This document shows, piece after piece, positions 4,800-51,003 of a DNA stretch of 64,000 nucleotides. Source of the DNA: a phage. The number at the start of each line of letters is the position of its first letter. Position 1 is the first letter of the stretch. Below the pieces are notes generated by a model. The model had not been told where the DNA came from, did no database searches, and worked only from the letters and a program-made list of their open reading frames with translations. A program made the translations under genes and the position numbers. Location: sequence record PV805632.1; one strand, written 5' to 3'.

Positions 4800-5615
4800 A
4801 TGTACTCATCTATCGAACATCAGAAGCAACTCGAAGTACTATTCAATAAAAATCAGCTCCTGCCAAGGATGCGAAAAGAGTTCGAGGACTCCAAAGAAAT
4901 TGACTTTAAGGCATTCGCTGCCTATTTAGAAATTGATTATAAGCTGCTCATTGATGCAATGGTGCAGATTGCCCTACATAAACGTGCTGACATCCAGACT
5001 ATGATTGGCTCCCTCATGAGCCACTCAGATGATGCTCAGTACATCGCTGACTGTCTGTATAAGATGGCAGAGAATGACTGTTTCAACTATGACCCTACTA
5101 TCGACAAATTCGGTGTTATCTATGAGATTAGTGAAGATGTTCAGATGGAACTGGAAGCATTCCAGTATCCATTACCTATCGTAAGTGCTCCTAATCCTGT
5201 CAGAACTAACAGGGATACTGGTTATTACCAGACTAAAGGAAGCATCATCCTCAAGAAGAACCATCATGAGATGGATGTCTGCCTTGACCACATCAACCGT
5301 ATGAACAATCAACGTCTCTGTGTTAACTGGGACGTTGCTAACTATGTAAAAGACTCTCGTCCTAACATGGATAAACCCAAAGAGGGTGAAACCCGTCAGG
5401 ACTATGAGAAACGAGTTAAAGCCTTTGAGAAGTACAGTCGTACTGCTAAGGAAGTAATGGAGTTAGTGACTCAGGAAGGTAATAACTTCTCACTAGCACA
5501 TAAGTACGATAAGAGAGGGAGAACCTATGCCTGTGGTTACCACATTAACTATGCGGGAACCTCTTATAACAAAGCAGTCATAGAGTTCGCAGATAAAGAG
5601 CTTGTGGAGGACTAA
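4800..5615 (+). CDS. phage RNA polymerase II, small subunit (N4 gp15-like), 271 aa
   Basis: size and position match the N4 two-subunit T7-like RNAP II (about 269 + 404 aa); partner gene downstream carries the catalytic motifs. Confidence 0.6.
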   Translation: MYSSIEHQKQLEVLFNKNQLLPRMRKEFEDSKEIDFKAFAAYLEIDYKLLIDAMVQIALHKRADIQTMIGSLMSHSDDAQYIADCLYKMAENDCFNYDPTIDKFGVIYEISEDVQMELEAFQYPLPIVSAPNPVRTNRDTGYYQTKGSIILKKNHHEMDVCLDHINRMNNQRLCVNWDVANYVKDSRPNMDKPKEGETRQDYEKRVKAFEKYSRTAKEVMELVTQEGNNFSLAHKYDKRGRTYACGYHINYAGTSYNKAVIEFADKELVED

Positions 5616-6229
5616 TGAAAATGTGCAAAGACTGTGGAGAAGTTAAAGACCTCTCCCAGTTTGTACCTAAAGCATCCTGCACAGACGGCTACGAAGTACG
5701 CTGCCGTAGTTGCAGGGTACTCAAATACAATAAAGCTGATCCAGTTAAGATGTTTAAAAAGACATATATCTCTCAGGTGAACCACTCTGTAACGAGAGGT
5801 CATCCACCACCAGCTTATAGTCTGGAAGAGTTATATGACTGGCTGGATAACCAGCCAAACATTCATGAACTATGGGATGCTTACGTCACCAACAACTATG
5901 CTAAGGACTTAAAACCATCAATCGACCGCATAGATGACCTTAAGCCGTATACTCTTGATAACATTCAGTTAATGACGTGGAAAGAGAATAGGAACAAAGG
6001 TGCCAAGAGCAAAAAAGAAGGTGTTATTGGGAAGCATAAACCAGTGATTGCCTACCACTTGGATGGCTCAATCTATAAAGAATTTGTTAGTACCATTGAA
6101 GCTGCTAGACATGTGTCAGGCAGAGCATGGGGAATCACCACGGTAGCTGATGGCATACCAGTAAAGGATGGAAGGGGTAAGCTCTACAATCCTAAAACAT
6201 ACAAAGGCTACATCTGGGCCTGGAAATAA
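5615..6229 (+). CDS. HNH homing endonuclease with C-terminal IENR1/NUMOD-like DNA-binding motif (204 aa)
   Basis: N-terminal Cys cluster CKDCG...CRSC; HNH-like core IDRIDDLKPYTLDNIQLMTWKENRNKG; C-terminal KPV...F.S..EAARH..G.....GYIW motif typical of intron-encoded nuclease repeats. Confidence 0.6.
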   Translation: MKMCKDCGEVKDLSQFVPKASCTDGYEVRCRSCRVLKYNKADPVKMFKKTYISQVNHSVTRGHPPPAYSLEELYDWLDNQPNIHELWDAYVTNNYAKDLKPSIDRIDDLKPYTLDNIQLMTWKENRNKGAKSKKEGVIGKHKPVIAYHLDGSIYKEFVSTIEAARHVSGRAWGITTVADGIPVKDGRGKLYNPKTYKGYIWAWK

Positions 6230-7730: not shown

Positions 7731-7757
7731 CCACCCTCATGGGTGGCTTTCTTTTTA
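7730..7757 (+). terminator. intrinsic terminator GCCACCC-TCAT-GGGTGGC + TTTCTTTTTAT
   Basis: hairpin plus T-run; overlaps stop codon. Confidence 0.7.
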
Positions 7758-10791: not shown

Positions 10792-11967
10792 ATGAACCAG
10801 ATACCTCAGCACACACTTAGTGATGAACAACTCATGCGTGAGTATGACCGTATTCAGGCGCAGGCATTTCTTGGACGCAGTGCAGCGTTTTTTGGTTCAT
10901 TGCTGTGTAGTCTTAAGTTCTCATGGAAACGTGAGGGCTGTCCCACTGCATGTACCGATGGGATAGAACTCCATTTCAACCCAGACTTCTTTATCTGGAT
11001 GTGCCCTGATGCAAGAGAAACGGTGCTAATGCACGAACTCTGGCATGTGGCATACCTACATGGCATCCGTTGTGGAAGCCGTGACCCAGAAGTCTGGAAC
11101 CAGGCATGTGACCACTTCATTAACCTTCAGTTAGAGGAAGATGGTTACAAGTTCACTGGTATCGACGAAGGCATTTGCAAAGACCCTCAATATAAAGGAT
11201 GGGTCGAAGAAGACATCTACGATGACCTGATGAAGAACCCTCAGAAAAGGCAGAAGCCGTCAGGGGGTGCTGGAGCAGGTCTTGCTGGCGACATGAAAGC
11301 TCCCTCTTCGGGGCAGTCCCAGGGTGCTGTTGTCAACAACGTAGTACGTGCAATGCAAAGCCAGAAGATGGCTGGTGGAATGATGCCCGGTAAAGGTGCT
11401 GGTCGTATGGAAGAGGTTATTACCCAATTCCTTAAACCAGTGGTTCCTTGGCAGGAAGTCCTGCTGAACTTCTTTACCGACATTGATGGTACACACTATA
11501 CGTGGGCCAGACCTAACCGTCGTTTCACTGACGTCTATCTACCTTCTCTGGAAGATGATGAAGGACGCTTACGACACTTAGCCTACTTTGAGGATGTATC
11601 TGGTTCTATTAGTAGTGCTGACTCTCTGCGTTTTAACTCAGAGGTTGCCTACGTTAAGAGCCAGTTCAATCCTAAGAAGATGACCCTAATTACCTTCGAC
11701 GATATTATCCAAGAAGAAATAGACATCACTGAAGAAGATACTTTTGAAGAGATTAAGATTACTGGTCGTGGTGGTACAAACCTTGAACCAGTGCGTGAAT
11801 GGATCATTAAGAATAAGCCAACCGCTGCAATCATATTCTCCGATATGTATGTTCGTCCTATGGAAGAATTGCCATTTGATATCCCTATCATCTGGTGTGT
11901 TCTGAATAATCCTAATGCTACCGTACCTTTTGGGGAGGTAGTTCATATCCCTAAAGGAATGAAATAA
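10792..11967 (+). CDS. VWA-domain protein with N-terminal HExxH metallopeptidase-like motif (392 aa)
   Basis: HELWH motif; MIDAS-like DVSGSISS; ORF-track ORF 10558..11967 trimmed to first ATG after the upstream stop. Confidence 0.55.
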   Translation: MNQIPQHTLSDEQLMREYDRIQAQAFLGRSAAFFGSLLCSLKFSWKREGCPTACTDGIELHFNPDFFIWMCPDARETVLMHELWHVAYLHGIRCGSRDPEVWNQACDHFINLQLEEDGYKFTGIDEGICKDPQYKGWVEEDIYDDLMKNPQKRQKPSGGAGAGLAGDMKAPSSGQSQGAVVNNVVRAMQSQKMAGGMMPGKGAGRMEEVITQFLKPVVPWQEVLLNFFTDIDGTHYTWARPNRRFTDVYLPSLEDDEGRLRHLAYFEDVSGSISSADSLRFNSEVAYVKSQFNPKKMTLITFDDIIQEEIDITEEDTFEEIKITGRGGTNLEPVREWIIKNKPTAAIIFSDMYVRPMEELPFDIPIIWCVLNNPNATVPFGEVVHIPKGMK

Positions 11968-18275: not shown

Positions 18276-20320
18276 ATGAAAATCGAACTGATTTCTATCA
18301 TCGCACTGGCAGTTGACAGTCGAAACCTCACACTGTGGAAGCCTGATGGCTCCACGGTTGTATACCCTCAGAGCGACCCACGGGTTGCTCGTATTGTATC
18401 TGAAGCACAGACTAAAGGTCTGGGCACTACCCAGGATCAAATAGAAGTAAACATTGCACCAGAAGTAGAACTTCGTACTGAATACCTGGAAGCAGAGAAG
18501 AACACCAACGGATTCGTTCGTTTCTTTAAGGTAGCTAAAGCTAAACTCAAAGAGTTCTTCGAAGATGGTACAGGTGTTTCACCAGCCCGTACCGTTTCAG
18601 ATATTAAGCTGGGTAATCCTACTAAGACACTAGTGTCTAAAGCTATGGATACTTTTCTGGCTGTCCAGGCTAATGAACCAGAAGTAACGGTAGCAGATGG
18701 TTACTACGACAAACGTGACAATCTGATGTGGGTTACCGGTTGGGATAAAGACCATAACCATCTTGCACTGGTTCGTTTTATTGACTACGTACTTTGTTGG
18801 AGTCATAAGCATACTGATCATATTCTTGCACAGGAGTGGCCTATTGCAATTCGTGCAGTATCTGATGATGAAATGGGTGAGTTTGCTAAACAAGCCCAAT
18901 ACATCAAAGGTGTACACATTGTATTTACCAACCGTGGAGAAACACCACTGCCTTACGTGGAAGTAGCTAAAACCTCGAACCAGGATAAGCTGGCTGCTGC
19001 TTCAGAGAAACTGGCTGCATTAGGTGCTATCAGTACTGATGACACTAACTTCCATACTGATGTGAAGGAAGATGAAGTGGTTGTTGCTGTTACCAACAAT
19101 GGGGTTATCCCTGGGGTTGAGAACCTGCAACGCCACCTGCGTCAGTCTGCCAAGCTGAAAGACTATAAGGGCTTTACTAAGTTCCTTGAGCGTCTGGCTC
19201 CGGTTATTAAAGACCGTCTGCACTCAGTGGAAGACCTGATGAAGTTCATGGAAACTGCTGAACTGCCTATCGCTGATGATGGCTCTATCCTGTTCCTGAA
19301 ACGACTTAAGTTCAGAGGTGAAGAAATGGTAAGCGTGTATTCGTTGACTGTCACTCAGGCAACATTCGTCAGTGGGTAGGTTGTAAAGTACAGGTACGAG
19401 AAGACCTGGTAGACCCTGACCGTCGTCAGGACTGCTCTAATGGTCTGCACGTAGCATCTATGAGCTATATCCGTACCTTCGGTGGTAACGTAACTATCCT
19501 TGGTAAAGTAGCACCAGAAGATGTATTTGCTGTTCCTGAGTACAACACTAATAAGATGCGTGTAGCTGCGTATCACATTATTGCTGAACTACCAGAAGAG
19601 GAACGTTGCAACGTTAACAATGGTATCTATCTGTCTAATACAGAAGTGGGTAAGAAGTTACTTAATGATGCCATCGTTGGGAACCATAGTTCACCTACCA
19701 CACTTGTTATGGTTGGTGGGCATCGTGGTACTAACCTCAAATACACCAATCTATCGTCTGGTTCTGTAGAACAATTCCGTACAGTTGCTAATAAAGAGGC
19801 ACTGAATATGGAAGAGTCACTGAATGAAGCTGTAGCTGCTGAACCAGTGAAGGCTACTGACCTTAAACCTATTGTTAATAAGGCTCCTACCGTGAAAGAA
19901 CAAATCCAGGAACTGATTAAAGAGTTCCTTAACGCTGCTACTCCAGAAGATAAATTAGCTGCTGCTGATTTACTTGTGGAAATGCGAGGTAAGGCTCGTA
20001 AGCCATGGGCTGCTTTAGGTGTTGGTTCCGATGTGGTATCTAAGATTGCTGATGTACGTAGTACTCGCATTCCTGCACCAAAAGCGAAACCAGTGAAGAA
20101 AACTAAGGTTCACCGTTCGGCTACTGCTACTAAGGTAGCACCGTCTGGTAAACACGCTGATAATCTGCGTAGCATCCTGAATGATACGTCCTACTCTGAC
20201 TATCAGAAAGGTCATGCTCTGCAAGACTATAAGCGTCATGCTAAGAAGTCATTCACTGCAATGGGTCTGACTGAAGAAGAAGCTAAGTTAGCTACCAAGC
20301 TGGTCAAGGCCGTTAAGTAA
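18276..20320 (+). CDS. rIIB-like protein, reading frame interrupted by an apparent -1 shift near 19320-19330
   Basis: downstream frame encodes DCHSG...CSNGLHVASMSYIRTFGG...APEDVFAVPEYNTNKMR, matching the T4 rIIB core (DCHSG...CSRGLHVCSKSYIRHFG) as recalled; ORF-track ORFs 18276..19379 and 19460..20320 are in frames 0 and 2; no RBS before ATG 19460. Confidence 0.6.
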
Positions 20321-20335
20321 TAGCCTGTTCAAATG

Positions 20336-20359
20336 CCCTCACTTATAATAAAGTGAGGG
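20336..20359 (+). terminator. hairpin CCCTCACTT-ATAATA-AAGTGAGGG, weak T-tract
   Basis: 9-bp perfect stem after the rIIB-like stop. Confidence 0.4.
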
Positions 20360-20382
20360 TAAATTTGAAGAGGAAATGTACT

Positions 20383-20778
20383 ATGAGTTCTGTATACAGA
20401 GTTAATCGCAAAGCAACTGATGAAGACATCATTCGTATGAATGCTGTTGGTCTGTCCCTCGCAACTATCGCTAAGACGTTGGGGGTTCACCCCACTACGG
20501 TTACTTTGCGATTGCGTTCTTTAAACATTGAACCAGCCGACACACGTCGGACGTTCATGGAGAATGTACTCCGTCCATTACCAACCCATGTGGTAGATTG
20601 GCTATCAGAGCAAGTTGGTCCTGCTTATGAGATTCGTTCATATGTAAGGGACTTGATTCTGGAGGCATATAATAATCGCCACCTTAACCAAGAGAGTGAG
20701 CATGACAAGTTCATCCGTTTGTACGCTGGAAAACACACGGCAATGGTTTCTAAAAGCCGTACCAAATCCGACGAGTAA
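20383..20778 (+). CDS. putative HTH DNA-binding protein (131 aa)
   Basis: ORF track 20353..20778; ATG 20383 with GAGGAAA RBS; helix-turn-helix-like GLSLATIAKTLGVHPTTV; C-terminus overlaps the putative MazG start. Confidence 0.4.
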   Translation: MSSVYRVNRKATDEDIIRMNAVGLSLATIAKTLGVHPTTVTLRLRSLNIEPADTRRTFMENVLRPLPTHVVDWLSEQVGPAYEIRSYVRDLILEAYNNRHLNQESEHDKFIRLYAGKHTAMVSKSRTKSDE

Positions 20779-21156
20779 GAATATTAGTACCCAGATTGGT
20801 TGCCATCTGGAAGAAGTAGAGGAAATGCTTCAGACCATTTATCCAATGGTAGTTACGATGCAGAACTACTACAACGTGCACAGGATGCCATTACAAATCT
20901 GGCAAACCATATGAAGCGTAAGGCCGATGCCTACCGTATTGACGTTAGTACTGACCTGCTGGATGCACTGGCAGACCAGATTGTTACAGCAACTGGCGTC
21001 GGTACTTTCCTTGGGATGAATGTCCCCGGAGCATTGGCTGAGGTCAATCGCTCAAACTATTCCAAGTTCGAAGATGGGGAACCTATCTTCAACGAGAACA
21101 AGAAAGTCATGAAGGGGAAAGATTATACTCCCCCTGATTTAAAACCTTACATCTAA
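20702..21156 (+). CDS. MazG-like NTP pyrophosphohydrolase, apparently split across two frames (break between about 20840 and 20912)
   Basis: frame 2 carries RQWF...HLEEVEEMLQ (EExxE motif), frame 1 carries IDVSTDLLDALADQ...AEVNRSNYSKF (second MazG motif and C-terminal box); ORF-track ORFs 20696..20914 and 20800..21156. Confidence 0.35.
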
Positions 21157-21176
21157 CCCTCTACGGAGGGTTTTTT
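21156..21176 (+). terminator. intrinsic terminator ACCCTC-TACG-GAGGGT + TTTTT
   Basis: hairpin plus T-run. Confidence 0.7.
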
Positions 21177-21189
21177 ACTGGAGATTTAA

Positions 21190-22500
21190 ATGTTTTCCAA
21201 ACCTACCAAAGCCCCATTGAACCAGGGGCAAGAAGCGGTTGCGAAGGAGTTCTTCGACTTCCTGCTCGACCCTAATGCCACAGAGTTCGGAATCAGTGGA
21301 CCTGGAGGAACTGGTAAGACATTCCTGATGTCGCACCTCATTGATGACACTATGCCTGCATATATGGAAACCTGTTCTCTAATGGGAACCAAGCCTCTGT
21401 ATAACGAAGTTGTCATGACTGCGACCACGAACAAAGCTGCTGAAGTTCTGGCTCAAGCTACTGGGCGTCCAACGTCTACCTATCATTCCTTCCAGGGGCT
21501 GATTGTTAAGAATGACTTTAAAACCGGTGAGGCTACTGTCGTACCGTCTAAGTCATTCGCTATTAAGAAGAACAAAATCATCTTCGTAGACGAAGCATCC
21601 ATGATTGACCGTCAATTACTTAAGTATGCACGTGAAGGCACTCACCAGTGCAAACTGGTATTCGTAGGTGATGCTTCTCAGCTTCTGCCTGTTAAAGAGA
21701 GTAAATCTCCAGTGTATGCTGGCAATATTCCAACACACTATCTGACTGAACAGATGCGTACCGATACACCAGAACTCAAAGCGTTGCATCAGCAATTGCG
21801 TGATACGGTGGAAGGTAAGACAGGCTTCCTGCCTATTAAATGTATTCCAGGCATTATTGACTGGGTACAGGGGGAAGAGATGGAGAAACTGGTTCTCAGT
21901 CACTTCACTCAACCCACCAATAGCCGCATTGTTGCTTACACCAATGACCAGGTTATTAATTACAATAACTACATTCGTGAAGCTAACGGTTACGTGGGGG
22001 AATATTCCATCGGTGAGCAGCTAGTTTCTAACTCAGCCGTTCGCTTGGGCGTGGAAGACCGTCTGTCTATTGAGCAGGACGTAAAACTTATTGACCAGGA
22101 TAGTAGTACTCGCATGATTCAAGTCACGGGAGACCTGGAACTGGAAGTCCGTGATAGTACTCTAGACCTTGGTTATGGTGGTATTGTTAGTGAAGTACCA
22201 GTTCCTACCGACCCAGACTACTTCAACCGTTTGGTTAAGTGGTTAGGTAAAGAGAAGAACTGGGAACCTTACTTCCGCCTTAAAGAAACCATTCCAGACC
22301 TGCGTGCTACTCATGCATGTACTGTTCATAAATCACAAGGCTCTACTTACGACACAATCTTCATTGATGCAAATGACCTCTCAAGCTGTCGCCAACCTGA
22401 TATGGTTGCCCGTCTGCTTTACGTCGCTGTGTCTCGTGCCCGTAAGCGAGTAGTGTTCTATGGCAATCTTGCCAGTAAGTATGGTGGTCTAACTTTCTAA
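21190..22500 (+). CDS. SF1 DNA helicase, RecD/Pif1-like (436 aa)
   Basis: Walker A GPGGTGKT, Walker B IIFVDEASM, C-terminal TVHKSQGST and VAVSRAR motifs. Confidence 0.65.
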   Translation: MFSKPTKAPLNQGQEAVAKEFFDFLLDPNATEFGISGPGGTGKTFLMSHLIDDTMPAYMETCSLMGTKPLYNEVVMTATTNKAAEVLAQATGRPTSTYHSFQGLIVKNDFKTGEATVVPSKSFAIKKNKIIFVDEASMIDRQLLKYAREGTHQCKLVFVGDASQLLPVKESKSPVYAGNIPTHYLTEQMRTDTPELKALHQQLRDTVEGKTGFLPIKCIPGIIDWVQGEEMEKLVLSHFTQPTNSRIVAYTNDQVINYNNYIREANGYVGEYSIGEQLVSNSAVRLGVEDRLSIEQDVKLIDQDSSTRMIQVTGDLELEVRDSTLDLGYGGIVSEVPVPTDPDYFNRLVKWLGKEKNWEPYFRLKETIPDLRATHACTVHKSQGSTYDTIFIDANDLSSCRQPDMVARLLYVAVSRARKRVVFYGNLASKYGGLTF

Positions 22501-26216: not shown

Positions 26217-27174
26217 TGTCTCACTGGCTCTGGCTGTATGGCTATTACATGATGAGTATGATTATGTAGACAATCCCAAGTACCTGTCTGCTACTACATT
26301 GCTTAAGCCCATTAAGCAAATCGTCATGAAGCATCGTGTAGATTTTAGTGACCAGTCCATTGATGTTATGGATTTTGTTTCCACATCAATGGGTACTGGC
26401 TTACATGATTCTATCGAGAAAGCCTGGAAGCTAGGCCATAAGACTGCATTGAAGAAGCTAGGTTATCCTCAGCGAGTAATTGATGCAGTAGTCATTAACC
26501 CAACCAAAGAAGACTTTGCTGCTAACCCTGACCTTATCCCAATCTACATTGAACAGCGTGGAACCAAGCAGGTTAAGGGATGGACTATTGGTGGTAAATT
26601 CGACATCGTAACAGAAGGTCTGTTGCAAGACTTCAAGTCTACCTCAACCTATTCCTGGGTTGCTGGTTCCCGTGATGATGAACACAAGATGCAAGGCAGC
26701 TTGTACCGTTGGATTCACAACGACATCATTACTGAGGATGTCATTCGTATTAACTACATCTTCACCGACTTCATGAAACACATGGCTAACAGCAATCCGA
26801 ACTATCCTGCTAATCGTATTATGCATAAGGATATACCATTGCTATCTGTCGAGAAGACTGAGCGTTGGGTGGAAGAGAAGATTCACTTAATCGAAAAGTA
26901 CTGGGATGCACCTGAAGAGGAAATCCCTGAATGTACTGACGAGGAGTTGTGGCGAACAGAGCCACAGTTCAAATACTTCTCTGATGCTTCTAAGGTAGAT
27001 GTACCTGGGGCCAGAAGTACCAAAAACTTTGGCGATATGGCATCTGCCCGTATCTTCATGGCTGAAAAAGGTGGCAAGGGTGCTATCAAGGTTGTGGAGG
27101 GGCAGGTTAAACGCTGTTTATATTGCCCTGTCGCATCCATTTGCAAACAAAGAGAGAGATATTTTCCATCATGA
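26194..27174 (+). CDS. possible PD-(D/E)xK nuclease with C-terminal Cys cluster (Cas4/RecB-like), 326 aa
   Basis: FDIV...QDFK candidate catalytic motif and C-x2-C-x5-C near the C-terminus; motif-level only. Confidence 0.4.
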   Translation: MKVTNNHDVSLALAVWLLHDEYDYVDNPKYLSATTLLKPIKQIVMKHRVDFSDQSIDVMDFVSTSMGTGLHDSIEKAWKLGHKTALKKLGYPQRVIDAVVINPTKEDFAANPDLIPIYIEQRGTKQVKGWTIGGKFDIVTEGLLQDFKSTSTYSWVAGSRDDEHKMQGSLYRWIHNDIITEDVIRINYIFTDFMKHMANSNPNYPANRIMHKDIPLLSVEKTERWVEEKIHLIEKYWDAPEEEIPECTDEELWRTEPQFKYFSDASKVDVPGARSTKNFGDMASARIFMAEKGGKGAIKVVEGQVKRCLYCPVASICKQRERYFPS

Positions 27175-29324
27175 GCATTGACCTTACCGGAGTAGTGCAT
27201 CATCCAGCGATTGAAGAAATCGTAGATGTGCTCTGCAATAAAACCCAGAATAACGACCGGGGATTCTTCCGTGTCGAAGTAGCCTACTTCTTGGCTAAAA
27301 TGGCATCCTGCATGGGTGCAACCATCGTAACTAAAGACCGTGGTGACCTGCCGGTAAACATCTACGCTATGGCGTTGGCTACATCTGGTTTCGGTAAAGG
27401 TCACTCGGTAAATATCATTGAAGACGGGTTCATGACTGGCTTCCGTAAACGTTTTATGGAAGACACCATGCCCGTCATTGCAAATGACCGTTTATGGAAG
27501 ATTGCTAACGAACGTGCTGCTCGTCAGGGTACGGACCAGAATGATGAGTTCGATAAAGTTGAGGCAGAGTATAAGCGTGCTGGGGCATTCCCATTCACAT
27601 TCGACTCTGGTACAGCACCTGCTGTAAAACAGCTTCGTCACAAGCTGCTTATGGCTGGTTGTGGTGCTATTAACTTACAAATTGATGAGATTGGTTCCAA
27701 CCTCATTGCCAACGTTGAAGTTCTTAACCTGTTCCTTGAGTTGTATGACCAGGGGAAAGTAAAACAGAAGTTAACCAAGAACACTGCTGAAAGTATTCGT
27801 GGTGAAGAACTGGATGGTAAAACTCCTGCTAACCTGCTGCTGTTCGGTACTCCGAGTAAGCTGCTGGATGGTGGTCAGACCGAAGACCAGTTCTATGACT
27901 TCCTCGATACAGGGTATGCACGTCGTTGTCTATTTGCCATTGGGCACTTAGATAAACGAGCACATGCAACGATGACTCCGGAAGAAATCTACCATAACCT
28001 GATTAAGCAGGATAACGTTCAGTCTCTTGGTAAGTGGGCCAACCACTTCCATAGTCTGGCTGACCCAAACCTGTTTGGCTTTAAGATGATTGTGGAAGAT
28101 GCAGTGGGTATTGCTCTGATTGCTTACAAAATTGATTGTGAGAAACAAGCAGAGGCTATGGCTGACCACGAAGAAATTCGTAAGGCTGAAATCTCCCATC
28201 GTTACTTCAAGGCTCTTAAACTGGCAGGTGCATTGGCGTTTGTTGACCAGAGTTCATTCATTGAGATGTCTCACCTTAAACAAGCAATCCTGCTCGTAGA
28301 AGAATCTGGGGCAGCATTCCAGGGTATTCTCAATCGTGAGAAAGCCTATGTGAAGCTGGCTAAGTACATTGCCTCCGTAGGTAAAGAGGTTACTCATGCT
28401 GACTTGCTGGAGTCGTTACCATTCTATAAGAGTGGTAATGCAGCTCGTAATGAGATGATGACTCTTGCTACAGCATGGGGTTACAAACAGCACATCATTA
28501 TTAAGAAGACCTTCAATGAAGGTATTGAGTTCTTCCGTGGGGAGACTCTGAAAGAGACTGACACCAATGAGATGATAGTGGCATATAGTGATAGCTTTGC
28601 TTATGACTATGTTGGTGAACGTGTACCGTTTGACCAGCTACATGTATTAACCCAAGCTCCCGGTATGCACTGGGTAAACCATCACATGAAGAATGGGCAT
28701 CGTTCTGAAGAGAACGTTATTCCAGGATTTAACATGATTGTTATTGACTGTGATGGTGGAGTACCACTGCATACGTGCCATGAACTGATGAAGGAATATA
28801 AGTTCATGACCTATACCACTAAGCGTCATACCGATGAAGAGAACCGTTTCCGTTTGATTATTCCAATGAACTATGAGTTACACCTCGACACTGAGGAATA
28901 CAAAGAGTTCATGAATAACGTTATGGCTTGGCTACCATTCGAAACGGATGAGTCTGCTAACCAACGAGCTAAGAAGTGGATGTCCTGTGAGACTGGTTCC
29001 TATCATTACAACCTTGATGCGAATCTGTTGGATGTACGTGACTTTATTCCTCGTACCAGTAAGAACGAGCAGTTCCAGAACCAGATGAAGGAAGTTCAGT
29101 CGTTGGATAATCTGGAGCGTTGGTTCGCTGGTCGTATTGCCTCCGGTAATCGTAATAATCAAATGATTAAATACGCACTGGCATTAGTAGACAGTGGTTG
29201 GGACTTTGCTCAGGTACAGCAAGCCGTCTACTCATTCAATAAGAAACTGGCTAATCCATTACCAGATGATGAATTGAATTCAACCGTAATGGTCACCGTG
29301 GCTAAACGCTTCGCTGGCAAGTAA
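27171..29324 (+). CDS. primase-like replication protein (717 aa)
   Basis: ORF track 27123..29324 trimmed to ATG 27171 (ATGA overlap with upstream stop); VIDCDGG resembles a primase-polymerase DxD motif; position between polymerase and recombination genes. Confidence 0.4.
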   Translation: MSIDLTGVVHHPAIEEIVDVLCNKTQNNDRGFFRVEVAYFLAKMASCMGATIVTKDRGDLPVNIYAMALATSGFGKGHSVNIIEDGFMTGFRKRFMEDTMPVIANDRLWKIANERAARQGTDQNDEFDKVEAEYKRAGAFPFTFDSGTAPAVKQLRHKLLMAGCGAINLQIDEIGSNLIANVEVLNLFLELYDQGKVKQKLTKNTAESIRGEELDGKTPANLLLFGTPSKLLDGGQTEDQFYDFLDTGYARRCLFAIGHLDKRAHATMTPEEIYHNLIKQDNVQSLGKWANHFHSLADPNLFGFKMIVEDAVGIALIAYKIDCEKQAEAMADHEEIRKAEISHRYFKALKLAGALAFVDQSSFIEMSHLKQAILLVEESGAAFQGILNREKAYVKLAKYIASVGKEVTHADLLESLPFYKSGNAARNEMMTLATAWGYKQHIIIKKTFNEGIEFFRGETLKETDTNEMIVAYSDSFAYDYVGERVPFDQLHVLTQAPGMHWVNHHMKNGHRSEENVIPGFNMIVIDCDGGVPLHTCHELMKEYKFMTYTTKRHTDEENRFRLIIPMNYELHLDTEEYKEFMNNVMAWLPFETDESANQRAKKWMSCETGSYHYNLDANLLDVRDFIPRTSKNEQFQNQMKEVQSLDNLERWFAGRIASGNRNNQMIKYALALVDSGWDFAQVQQAVYSFNKKLANPLPDDELNSTVMVTVAKRFAGK

Positions 29325-33507: not shown

Positions 33508-33660
33508 ATGATTGACCTAATCTTAACCCCGTATGCCTATGAGGTAACGGATAACCGAGGACGTAAGTCTTTGGTGTTTGCAGGTAGCGTAGCCTATAAC
33601 AACGCAGTCATGTTTAAATACAAACTTAAACCACTCTATGAGGCTAACAATGGAATTTGA
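33508..33660 (+). CDS. possible small ORF (50 aa), not in ORF track
   Basis: manual translation MIDLILTPYAYEVTDNRGRKSLVFAGSVAYNNAVMFKYK...; overlaps start of next small ORF. Confidence 0.25.
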   Translation: MIDLILTPYAYEVTDNRGRKSLVFAGSVAYNNAVMFKYKLKPLYEANNGI

Positions 33661-33787
33661 TGATTTAGATTTTGAAGCTATTGAAAAGGCGAACCAGGAG
33701 AAGCTGGAACAGGCTAATCGTGAAGCTGAAGAGCTAGAAAACGCTAAAGGTAACAACGATTGCACGAGTGGTGGTTGCACCATTTAA
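33650..33787 (+). CDS. possible small acidic helical protein (45 aa), not in ORF track
   Basis: manual translation MEFDDLDFEAIEKANQEKLEQANREAEELENAKGNNDCTSGGCTI; codon usage matches the genome; preferred over antisense ORF 33523..33783. Confidence 0.3.
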   Translation: MEFDDLDFEAIEKANQEKLEQANREAEELENAKGNNDCTSGGCTI

Positions 33788-33860
33788 CAAACAAGTGTAA
33801 GGTAGTTTTTACCGAAAGGTACTGAACTACTTACGTAGTGAGGCTGTAATAGCCAAAACA

Positions 33861-33898
33861 AAGAAAGCCCCTCATTTGAGGGGCTTTCTTATTTATAC
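33861..33898. terminator. bidirectional intrinsic terminator (13-bp stem AAGAAAGCCCCTC / GAGGGGCTTTCTT)
   Basis: long perfect stem with T-runs on both strands, between convergent + and - units. Confidence 0.7.
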
Positions 33899-34495
33899 AG
33901 GATTTACTGTTTGAAATACCCTGACAGATACCTTAGTGAGTGTAATAGTTTGTCCACTAACGTTATGCATACCTAATTGTATGCCATTGACCATAAATGG
34001 GTCAGTGCTGCCCATGGTATATGTTGCAAGGTTTACTTCCTCGTTGCTTATATCATTACCCTGGAATTTAGAACTAAAAGCAGAACCCCTTATAGTTGTT
34101 CCATTGGGTCGTCTTGTTTGTGTTCTCCACTCTCTAACTGTCCCATCATCCCCGGCAATACTACCAGTAATCCGTACTACGAAAATTACTTGTGTATTGC
34201 CTTCTCTAGCAGGGAAGAGTAGATTGTTATCTAATATAGTAGTACCAGCAGTTCCTGCCGGATCCTTAGTTAAGCCTTCCAAACTAAAATAATTGAACCA
34301 GCTTGTATCAGTGATTGTCTGGCTTCCAGCCCAATCCCATATATCTAATAAAAAAGGATTTGGCAATTCTTTTGCCAAATCCTCGTCCGTTTTGGATGCA
34401 AGTATGCTTTTCCCCTTGTCTCCGATAAGGGTCATTCCACCCATAACCAAAGGCATTGCATCAAAACCCTGATCGTATTTGTCTTTAATGGTCAT
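33893..34495 (-). CDS. hypothetical protein downstream of the virion RNAP gene (200 aa)
   Basis: ORF track 33893..34531; start moved to ATG 34495 (MTIKDKYDQ) with GGGGA RBS, since 34531 lies inside the terminator hairpin. Confidence 0.5.
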   Translation of the reverse strand: MTIKDKYDQGFDAMPLVMGGMTLIGDKGKSILASKTDEDLAKELPNPFLLDIWDWAGSQTITDTSWFNYFSLEGLTKDPAGTAGTTILDNNLLFPAREGNTQVIFVVRITGSIAGDDGTVREWRTQTRRPNGTTIRGSAFSSKFQGNDISNEEVNLATYTMGSTDPFMVNGIQLGMHNVSGQTITLTKVSVRVFQTVNPV

Positions 34496-48352: not shown

Positions 48353-51003
48353 TTAAACAAGGTCTGTATTAAGAGTCATATCAGAGTAGCTGCCAATCAT
48401 GTTTAAAGACATGTCAGCTATATCCGAACCAGTCATAAGAGTACGTGAGAGGAAAGAATCCAACGACTCCATTGACACAAATTGCATAGGGTCAATTACA
48501 CCCTGCCCAGCAGTACCAAACATTTCTTCATACTGCTTATTGATTGCCATCATATCAGTATTGTACTGCTGCATTACATTCTCTGCTTTCTGAATAGTAG
48601 CAGCCGTAGATGCATTAATATACTGGCTAATACCATTACCTACTGAACTGGTAAGCTGCATAATGTTCTGAGCATTCATCATTTCACCGGCTAAGGTAGA
48701 TAAGGATGTACCAGTAGACATAGCAGTACCAACGTTCATAGCCACCATTGAAGCAATAGCAGCAATGATAAAACCTAGCTTATCACCAAACAGAGAAGTG
48801 GATACTTTAGTGACAATAGATATCATAATCATTGCAGCAATGGCGTTTGCTACAGCACCTACTATTACAGCAGCTAATCCAACAAAACCTAGCGATGCAC
48901 CAACTGCACCATAAGCCCCAAGAATACCTGCACCACCAGCACTACCAGCACCCATAGTAAATACGGATATAACGACAGCAACTACAACAACCACAATCTT
49001 AAAGGCAGAGGACTGATACCACTTTTTCTTAACCTTTTTATATGAGTTCATTACTAAGTAAGAGCAGGCAGTAGATAACTGAGTGCTACGAACTAGTGAC
49101 ATTGAACGATAGATGTTGGTGTGCAGGGGAATAATGAATCCACTCTCTTCTGCATCACCCATTGCTTCAGCAACATCAATATTTACTGACTTATTTTTAT
49201 ATACCTTGTTGCTATGATGAAGGCCCAATACCCTAAGTTTACGGTAGGTATTATTACCATCCTGCCAAAGCAACTCATATTCTTGCATAGTATAAAACGT
49301 AGGGGTAACTTCCAGCTTTTTGCTAGCACCAGCACGCATGTTCTTACGGGTAAGGGTTATATCCCCTGCATATCTGGCTCGAAGTTGTCCTTGTTTAGCA
49401 CCAGCCCATGCTTCACCGGAATGGGTAGTTTCAAATACGTAGTTCCAACTAATAGTCATATCATACTTATAATGCTTACTACTATGCACCCTAAACTCCC
49501 GCTTAGGTATAACAGGGTATTCTGGCAGAGGTGGAGGTGTTCCAACAATTTGACCTTCCTGCCTGTTCCACCATTCCTCATATGCATCAACTGCATCATT
49601 TGCTGCCTGATAACCTGCAATCACTGCTTCCAGTGTAGGGTAGGTTGGATCAGGTGGAAATGCTTCAGTAGCCATCTGAAAGAAACGGTAGATGTATTCC
49701 TTAGCAGTATCTTCTGGAGTATTAAGAGATACACCGAATGTGCCATAGATGTATTGAATATCGCCTATGTCATCATTCTTCTTAAGCTCAGTCACTACTT
49801 TATCTAGCTTACCACCAGTAGCTTTATAGAGTGCCTTCTTACAGTGGGGGTAGATTGTGTCATTCTCTACCCATTGCTTATCATTCCTGATTGGAATAAA
49901 TGGATAGAATCGGTTATCAGTAGCCTCAGTTTCAAACAGTGAATCGAGTGTAGCGTTACCTGAGTTCTTCTTATAGATAAGCATCTTAGGTGTACCAACA
50001 GCAGTCATCTCAGTGTCAGTACGAGTAGTCTGGGATGAGTACTTACGAACCAGTGTCTCTGTGGTCGTGGTGATTGTATCTGTGCGAGTAACACCACCAC
50101 CTAAATTAACTACATTAGTGGTTACAGTAGTACTGGATTGAACCTCACCGAACTTTCTATGAGTCATTACCCTATCAGATACAACTACAGTTACATCATC
50201 AGGCTTCTCAGTGAATCCTCTACGGTAAACCTTAACGTAAGAGTTCCAGTTATCCACACTTGGTACAGTAACAGTACTGTCTTCATATGGTCTACCATCA
50301 GAGTAAACAGAATGAATCTGTATAGTCTTAGTAAGATTGGTTGTGTTAGCCGTCGTATTACTTGAGATGGTAGTCCATAACAGAGTAGACGGTAAGTCAT
50401 TTTCGCTGTTATAGACAGTAGTCGGACCTACTACCGGTGGATTGGTAGCCGGGGACTTATAGAACGTGTAATCAGCATAGAGATACAAAGCACCTGGTTC
50501 AAAGTTAGTAGGTGTGAATGTAATGGGGGAACTCCATCTAAGGAGGTCATAGTGATTACATTAGTATCTTCATCAATGTCTATGTCGAATCGTTCCATGA
50601 TTCGACTTGGGGCATTCTCATAAAGATACTGATCACACCATTGCTCAAAGTCAGCAAAGCCAATCTCTGCTGCCTGAACATAGACAGATTCTCCAGCAGG
50701 TGGGGTAATTTGATCCTCTATAACAGTAGGGTCAATCTTAGCCAGTACACCTAACGAAGAACCTGCCATACCAACTTCTGAATCATAGTGATTCTTACTC
50801 CAGCTAGAAAACAGTCGCATACGTATACCAGGCCCCTTCAGATAACTATCAGAGATAGTGTCTGCCATAGTGAATCCTGTATCAGCAACAATCTTACCGA
50901 TGACTACAGTCTTCATATAGTTTGGACGCTTGTGTATATCCCCTGCCATGTTATAGACAGAGGATGCTACGTATACTTTGGTCTTACTACTGAATAAGCC
51001 CAT
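48353..51003 (-). CDS. large virion protein with C-terminal transmembrane segments, apparently one gene split by a -1 frame break at a C5 run near 50510-50525
   Basis: ORF 50431..51003 and ORF 48353..50488 overlap by 58 nt; downstream ORF has only a TTG start with poor RBS, its frame is open and well codon-adapted upstream of that TTG, and the frames meet at GGAGTTCCCCCATT. Confidence 0.45.

Follow-up and report, generated by a model that had tools for sequence, protein, structure and literature searches.

The all-alpha NTP pyrophosphohydrolase superfamily comprises MazG, HisE and the dimeric dUTPases (Moroz et al. 2005, as cited in PMC5608427). The dimeric dUTPases encoded by Staphylococcus aureus phages combine a conserved catalytic core with a hypervariable 'domain VI' that occurs in many alleles (PMC5608427). 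Two bacterial proteins are also relevant here: DR2231 of Deinococcus radiodurans, a MazG-like NTP-PPase with dUTPase activity, and Exig_1061 of Exiguobacterium, a structural genomics target (PDB 3NL9) described as a putative NTP pyrophosphohydrolase. The closest described counterparts of the gene considered in this work are gp36 of phage G7C (YP_004782165.1) and gp36 of phage N4, which occupy the same position in the order rIIB, hairpin, gp35, gp36, terminator and gp37 helicase. In G7C, where this locus reads rIIB (gp34), stem-loop, gp35, gp36 and the RecD/Dda-like helicase gene gp37, the annotation gives gp36 as an intact 151-aa 'nucleoside triphosphate pyrophosphohydrolase family protein' that overlaps gp35 by 77 nt. 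Phage Bas96 has an identical locus layout. A literature search found no experimental work on gp36 of N4 or G7C.

The DNA analysed here, a stretch of 64,000 nt referred to below as the window, is, to judge from its sequence, the nearly complete genome of a G7C-like coliphage, an N4-like podophage (Gamaleyavirus, Schitoviridae). Starting at the left end, the whole of it aligns colinearly with G7C, at approximately 96-97% identity. A megablast search with positions 20300-21300 returned 76 phage records, headed by Escherichia phage vB_EcoP_G7C at 97.8% identity, in an alignment that pairs 1001 window bases with 1002 G7C bases. The locus shows the synteny of the N4-like gp36 orthologue group (rIIB, gp35, gp36 and helicase, with the gp35/gp36 overlap) together with full-length colinear similarity. 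The gp36 orthologue in the window is an already known and routinely annotated N4-like gene, biochemically uncharacterised. Unlike G7C gp36, the window copy lacks one A at 20845-20846, so that the gene is distributed over two reading frames.

The gp36 homologue extends from 20702 to 21156, frame 2 holding codons 1-48 and frame 1 codons 50-151; the single uninterrupted frame of its orthologues is broken in this copy. The frame 2 ORF (20696..20914) has an ATG at 20702 and encodes MTSSSVCTLENTRQWFLKAVPNPTSKNISTQIGCHLEEVEEMLQTIYP, followed by 22 out-of-frame residues and a premature TGA at 20912..20914 (+ strand). Its authentic part, codons 1-48 (20702..20845, + strand), was assigned from identity to G7C and from PHROG 671, and comprises helices 1 and 2, including the invariant HLEEVxEML metal-binding motif (E37, E38, E41). 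Frame 1 is open from 20788, directly after a TAG at 20785-20787, to the TAA at 21154-21156, and encodes ...NGSYDAELLQRAQDAITNLANHMKRKADAYRIDVSTDLLDALADQ...AEVNRSNYSKF.... Codons 50-151 and the stop codon (20848..21156, + strand), assigned from 96% identity to G7C residues 49-151 and again from PHROG 671, contribute helices 3-5 and the C-terminal tail. The frame 1 protein carries the series NGSYDAELL...LLDALADQ...AEVNRSNYSKF, in which the LLDxLADQ motif (D88, D92) and the RSNYSKF motif (N119, K122) can be recognised.

The first-pass annotation had read this region as a MazG-like gene split over two frames, with HLEEVEEMLQ in frame 2 and AEVNRSNYSKF in frame 1, and this reading was borne out by both protein and DNA comparison. 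When G7C gp36 was used as a tblastn query, residues 1-48 aligned with 20702-20845 in frame 2 at 100% identity and residues 49-151 with 20845-21153 in frame 1 at 96% identity. In the DNA alignment the window reads TATCC-AATGG against TATCCAAATGG in G7C, with one base missing, and ungapped it reads TATCCAATGG; over a shorter span, CCAATGG stands where G7C and every relative with the same version of this segment have CCAAATGG. The frameshift site lies at 20845..20846 (+ strand), within the interval of about 20840-20912 to which the break had previously been confined, and consists of AA where the relatives have AAA, as seen in alignments with G7C and SRR22255903. Because the A-run is AA and not AAA, only AT is left of codon 49 (AAT, Asn). 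As the sequence stands, the product would be a truncated 70-aa peptide. Insertion of a single A restores an ORF of 151 aa that is 97% identical to G7C gp36, 67% identical to N4 gp36 (the proteins being 150-151 aa long) and 99% identical to P0001, an intact metagenomic homologue. This repaired gene differs from that of G7C at 16 codons, and since 12 of these differences are synonymous and the residues at the 4 non-synonymous positions are all present in P0001, gp36 shows no sign of decay.

The same site was followed in relatives and in sequence collections. All 13 phage records that span the break have one base more than the window, and in a tblastn search covering 286 phage records gp36 appeared as one in-frame piece in every match listed. 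All retrieved homologues, including P0001, read ...LQTIYPNGSYD... unbroken across the site. An exact-pattern scan of viral, metagenome and genome collections found the intact allele in 7 contigs (2 viral and 5 metagenome) and the deletion allele in none. Among the phage records and collections scanned, the two-frame layout of gp36 is unique to the window.

Frame changes were also sought genome-wide with the translation of each G7C CDS as a query against the window, which covered approximately 65 shared CDSs. Only three of these genes are split, namely rIIB (gp34), gp36 and gp53, and each carries an uncompensated, private 1-nt deletion in a short homopolymer within highly conserved surroundings. 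In rIIB, the A-run at 19324-19326 (+ strand) is AAA where relatives have AAAA; tblastn passes from frame 3 to frame 2 at this point, leaving one fragment at 18276..19379 and a second part that reads to 20320. The rIIB break noted at first pass is therefore real in this sequence, and its -1 direction is that of the gp36 break. In gp53, which lies on the - strand and is a core gene, comparison with G7C revealed a single C (as written on the + strand) at 50532 where relatives have CC, and the gene is divided near residue 158 of 883 into fragments at 50431..51003 and 48353..50488. This third break is absent from the first-pass annotation. For the rIIB and the gp53 deletion alike, all 56 relatives listed have one base more. 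Intergenic T-runs near 7752 and 13119 contain two further isolated 1-nt deletions relative to G7C; one of these changes turns T6 into T5 after a stem-loop and the other turns T7 into T6, and both agree with the pattern of homopolymer deletions. No 1-nt insertion relative to G7C was found in any conserved coding sequence, and the remaining indels form compensated pairs, have lengths divisible by three or fall within non-coding DNA that is divergent. The suspicion that the assembly carries single-base deletions is supported by the three split genes and the two intergenic changes. The main value of this result is quality control: with at least three gene-breaking and two intergenic single-base deletions in the window's assembly, other apparent pseudogenes or split genes in the window need comparison with relatives first.

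Two of the three gene-breaking deletions, those of rIIB and gp36, have an A-run followed by TGGTA in common. A systematic error specific to this sequence context was considered and set aside as a weak hint only, given that most AAATGG/AATGGTA sites are the same in G7C and in the window. No Dam or Dcm motif is visible in the sequence contexts of the deletion sites.

The breaks in gp36, rIIB and gp53 are probably residual homopolymer under-calls from sequencing or assembly, in which case the real gp36 of this phage would be intact. Under this explanation, one A would have been dropped from a three-base A-run at 20845-20846, splitting gp36 over two frames, and the same under-calling would account for the equivalent 1-nt deletions in rIIB and gp53. 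Private changes that consist of deletions only and fall in homopolymers have the look of residual under-calls, as known from sequencing error profiles. The runs affected here go from A4 to A3, from A3 to A2 and from C2 to C1, without insertions. The strongest hint of assembly errors comes from gp53: all N4-like phages have just 14 conserved genes in common, gp53 being one of them (PMC4193335), and a viable phage is unlikely to lack it. Several points speak against an artefact. The runs are only 2-4 bases long and such errors are most frequent in long homopolymers. No genome more than 99% identical to the window was found, the nearest relatives among the contigs compared being about 96% identical, and the intact alleles have thus not been seen on a background of more than 99% identity. 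In addition, laboratory growth probably requires neither rIIB nor gp36, and therefore genuine mutants in these genes would be viable. For gp53, essentiality is a prediction from conservation only.

The strongest competitor, which must nevertheless be regarded as unlikely, is a real and very recent frameshift that has turned gp36 into a pseudogene with a 70-aa product, the rIIB and gp53 deletions perhaps being real as well. Such a mutation may have arisen during laboratory passage or may represent a defective genome in a mixed population. The deletion is, after all, present in the given sequence, and slippage at short homopolymers provides a natural mechanism. Genes of the rII type are classically dispensable on permissive hosts, as known from T4, and this too was counted in favour of real mutation. 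Moreover, gp36 lies outside the 14 core genes of N4-like phages (PMC4193335). Against these points stands the coincidence that would be required, that is, three private frameshifts in one genome at sites where none is seen in more than 50 relatives, one of them in gp53, a universally conserved core gene of the structural module. That all changes are deletions is the signature of homopolymer under-calling; the downstream part of gp36 is undecayed, and the allele is missing from all collections searched. If every one of these deletions were real, a viable phage would be able to do without gp53; this reading is judged less likely than the interface role of gp36 considered below.

Programmed recoding, in which a -1 ribosomal frameshift or transcriptional slippage would join the two frames into full-length gp36, is highly improbable. 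The -1 direction is that of most programmed frameshifts and the frames do overlap, from 20788 to 20914. However, this overlap zone holds neither an in-phase X_XXY_YYZ heptamer nor a homopolymer of four or more bases, the RNA downstream of it is no more stably folded than shuffled sequence (z -0.97), and no significant Rfam element was found. The layout is also not conserved, since every relative has one frame. The shift site is the relative's sequence minus one base. Recoding was rejected because slippery site, RNA structure and conservation of the shift are all lacking. There is equally little to recommend two separate genes, one for a small N-terminal protein and one for a shorter MazG-like C-terminal protein with its start at TTG 20800 or ATG 20911: a 118-aa ORF does exist at 20800..21156 and versions of 110-120 aa are sometimes called in other contigs, but these short versions are start-codon choices within one frame (MGCHLEEV... 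or MLQTIYPNG...) that read across the break, no Shine-Dalgarno-like sequence precedes 20800 or 20911, the two-ORF layout is found in no homologue elsewhere, and the frame 1 ORF is without helix 1 and the invariant EExxE motif, both of which every homologue has in one and the same frame. The finding that would have refuted the first-pass reading, a complete single-frame MazG inside 20800..21156, was therefore not made.

Taking under-calling as the preferred explanation, the protein restored by one A can be placed in its family. The first-pass annotation proposed a profile search with the repaired protein, and this search supports the MazG-like assignment: PHROG 671, 'nucleotide pyrophosphohydrolase', is matched with E 2.5e-32. 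Both halves match the same profile colinearly: the N-terminal part covers positions 532-580 with E 1.2e-4, and the C-terminal part covers 578-657 with E 3.6e-24. Weaker matches of the repaired protein are to two PHROGs of MazG-like pyrophosphatases, 2144 (E 6e-5) and 12019 (E 2e-4). Scans of Pfam-A and NCBIfam with the fragments and the repaired protein gave no MazG, HisE, dUTPase or other relevant match at E <= 1; the Pfam family PRA-PH is matched weakly by 5 of 72 gp36 homologues, the window protein not being one of them. The wider family is large, as a gp36 profile searched against 1.8 billion cluster representatives gave 2919 matches at E <= 1e-3 and 207 at E <= 1e-30.

Conservation within this family is concentrated in a small set of residues. 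Across 72-79 homologues of about 40% identity, E37, E38, E41, D92, T96, N119, K122, K135 and K138 are invariant, and W15, F16, H35, K72, D88, E114, S118, S121 and F123 are nearly so. Two acidic motifs lie on separate helices, EExxE on helix 2 and DxxxD on helix 4 (D88 being conserved in at least 90%), and an RSNxSKF motif is present as well. The second motif, DxxxD, departs from the canonical superfamily pattern ExxE ... ExxD. The AF2 model of gp36 is an all-helical bundle; it became confident with an alignment of 79 diverse sequences, compared with a pLDDT of 58 from a shallow alignment.

Remote comparison leads to the two bacterial proteins introduced above. A profile of diverse gp36 homologues, which was needed for this match, detected 3nl9 (Exig_1061) in the PDB with E 3.7e-7, and below it came repeated weak matches to DR2231 and to a 'MazG-related protein'. 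Searches of the PDB with the single sequence or with narrow profiles gave noise and DR2231 at E about 0.4-0.7. The 3NL9 protein has a DxxxD second motif like that of gp36; it differs in being bacterial, 171 aa long and only about 22% identical. DR2231 resembles gp36 in being an all-helical bundle, two helices of which carry acidic motifs. It is a recurrent weak sequence match (E 0.26-0.9), and a C-terminal ALAD...EV.R.N.SK pattern is common to both proteins. DR2231 was also the top Foldseek match of the gp36 model, at a Foldseek E above 1 and a TM of about 0.42; neither the sequence nor the structure match to DR2231 is statistically significant by itself. The PHROG matches, the EExxE and DxxxD motifs and the 3nl9 profile match together indicate that gp36 belongs to the all-alpha NTP pyrophosphohydrolase superfamily of MazG, HisE and dimeric dUTPases. 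Its subfamily has neither a Pfam model nor a characterised member.

By analogy with MazG, HisE and the dimeric dUTPases, residues E37, E38, E41, D88 and D92 of intact gp36 would hold Mg2+, and the conserved K72, R117, N119 and K122 would bind the triphosphate. With the metal coordinated by these carboxylates, the enzyme would be predicted to cleave a (d)NTP to (d)NMP and PPi. Since a dCTP-deaminase-family protein (gp26) and ThyX (gp30) are encoded in the same genome, it is plausible, though speculative, that gp36 turns dUTP or dCTP into the monophosphate or serves in house-cleaning. The most plausible role for gp36 would be to act beside gp26 and ThyX in sanitising or re-routing the dNTP pool. 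With gp35, the gene is flanked by two hairpins and belongs to the DNA-metabolism and replication module.

Within this conserved framework, gp36 contains a hypervariable cassette, which was delimited by alignment of homologues and by DNA homology boundaries to residues ~44-86 (20830..20957, + strand). Pairwise identity within the cassette averages 35% (minimum 2%) over the 105 closest full-length homologues, compared with 86% in the N-terminal flank and 94% in the C-terminal flank. By their cassettes these proteins, otherwise about 90% identical, form 15 clusters, with less than 50% identity between clusters. In DNA alignments with most relatives, homology ends about 40-50 nt into 20790-20900 (query base 38-53) and resumes at LLDALADQ, and the version of the window is common to only 13 of 54 records. 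Bas96, for instance, is unalignable across the cassette and about 98% identical on both sides of it. Such abrupt boundaries indicate that the cassette is exchanged by recombination. In the model, it corresponds to the loop between helices 2 and 3, helix 3 and the following loop, with K72 as the sole conserved residue. All four residues that distinguish the repaired protein from G7C gp36 are located in the cassette. The 5' edge of the cassette is 15 nt away from the frameshift, which falls within the cassette, but recombination does not explain the deletion because G7C and the window have the same cassette.

The dimeric dUTPases of S. aureus phages offer a parallel to this arrangement: they belong to the same superfamily, are likewise phage-encoded and also have one extremely variable internal region. 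No sequence similarity between them and gp36 was detected, and the variable part of gp36 differs in being a single helix with loops, of about 43 residues. A recombining hypervariable cassette suggests a surface under diversifying selection. By analogy, gp36 might be more than a housekeeping enzyme, the cassette serving as an interface in phage-host or phage-satellite conflict, a notion that is doubtful at present. The cassette nevertheless provides a cheap lead for the study of moonlighting nucleotide-metabolism enzymes in phage-host conflict.

The gene upstream of gp36 is the gp35 homologue (20383..20778, + strand; 131 aa), which is 100% identical to G7C gp35 across all 131 residues and matches PHROG 6377 over positions 1-131 of 131 (E 2.3e-73). 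An exact look-up of this protein retrieved just G7C and one partial contig that bears a different gp36 cassette, and the same look-up with the helicase retrieved no record. Its helix-turn-helix signal is weak, with sub-threshold matches to HTH_38 and HTH_23. The question raised at first pass, whether this HTH ORF reaches into the gp36 region, can be answered in the affirmative: it continues 77 nt past the gp36 start and is annotated likewise in G7C and Bas96. In the overlap, 20702-20778, the same DNA supplies the last 25 codons of gp35 and, out of frame with them, the first 25 codons of gp36. The overlap is kept in G7C and Bas96, in N4 both gp35 and gp36 are present under the match to it, and its DNA is almost invariant. 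None of the minus-strand ORFs around gp36 reaches 55 aa, and none has support.

Hairpins flank the gene pair on both sides. Between rIIB and gp35, a hairpin of the form CCCTCACTT-ATAATA-AAGTGAGGG (20336..20359, + strand) is the counterpart of the G7C stem_loop 20939-20962, at a colinear position. Directly 3' of the gp36 stop codon, an intrinsic-terminator-like hairpin is followed by a T-run (21155..21178, + strand). The Rfam family Whalefall-1 sRNA gave a sub-threshold match at 21125-21174 on the - strand (20.3 bits compared with a gathering score of 37; E 0.018); this match coincides with the terminator hairpin of gp36 and was judged to be due to chance.

Other differences from G7C are scattered over the window. 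Near the left end, the poly-C tract at 39-52 is C14 in the window and C7 in G7C, which could reflect a real length-variable tract or a homopolymer-calling problem. At the place of ST15.1, the window has a homologue of only 33% identity (5615-6154). The window is also without the G7C HNH endonuclease genes gp2.1, gp24.1, gp41.1 and gp47.1 and without gp1.2, the G7C coordinates of these missing genes being 1836-2330, 10917-11393, 27078-27575, 33592-34089 and 843-1058. These differences in gene content look like the presence/absence mosaicism typical of homing endonucleases.
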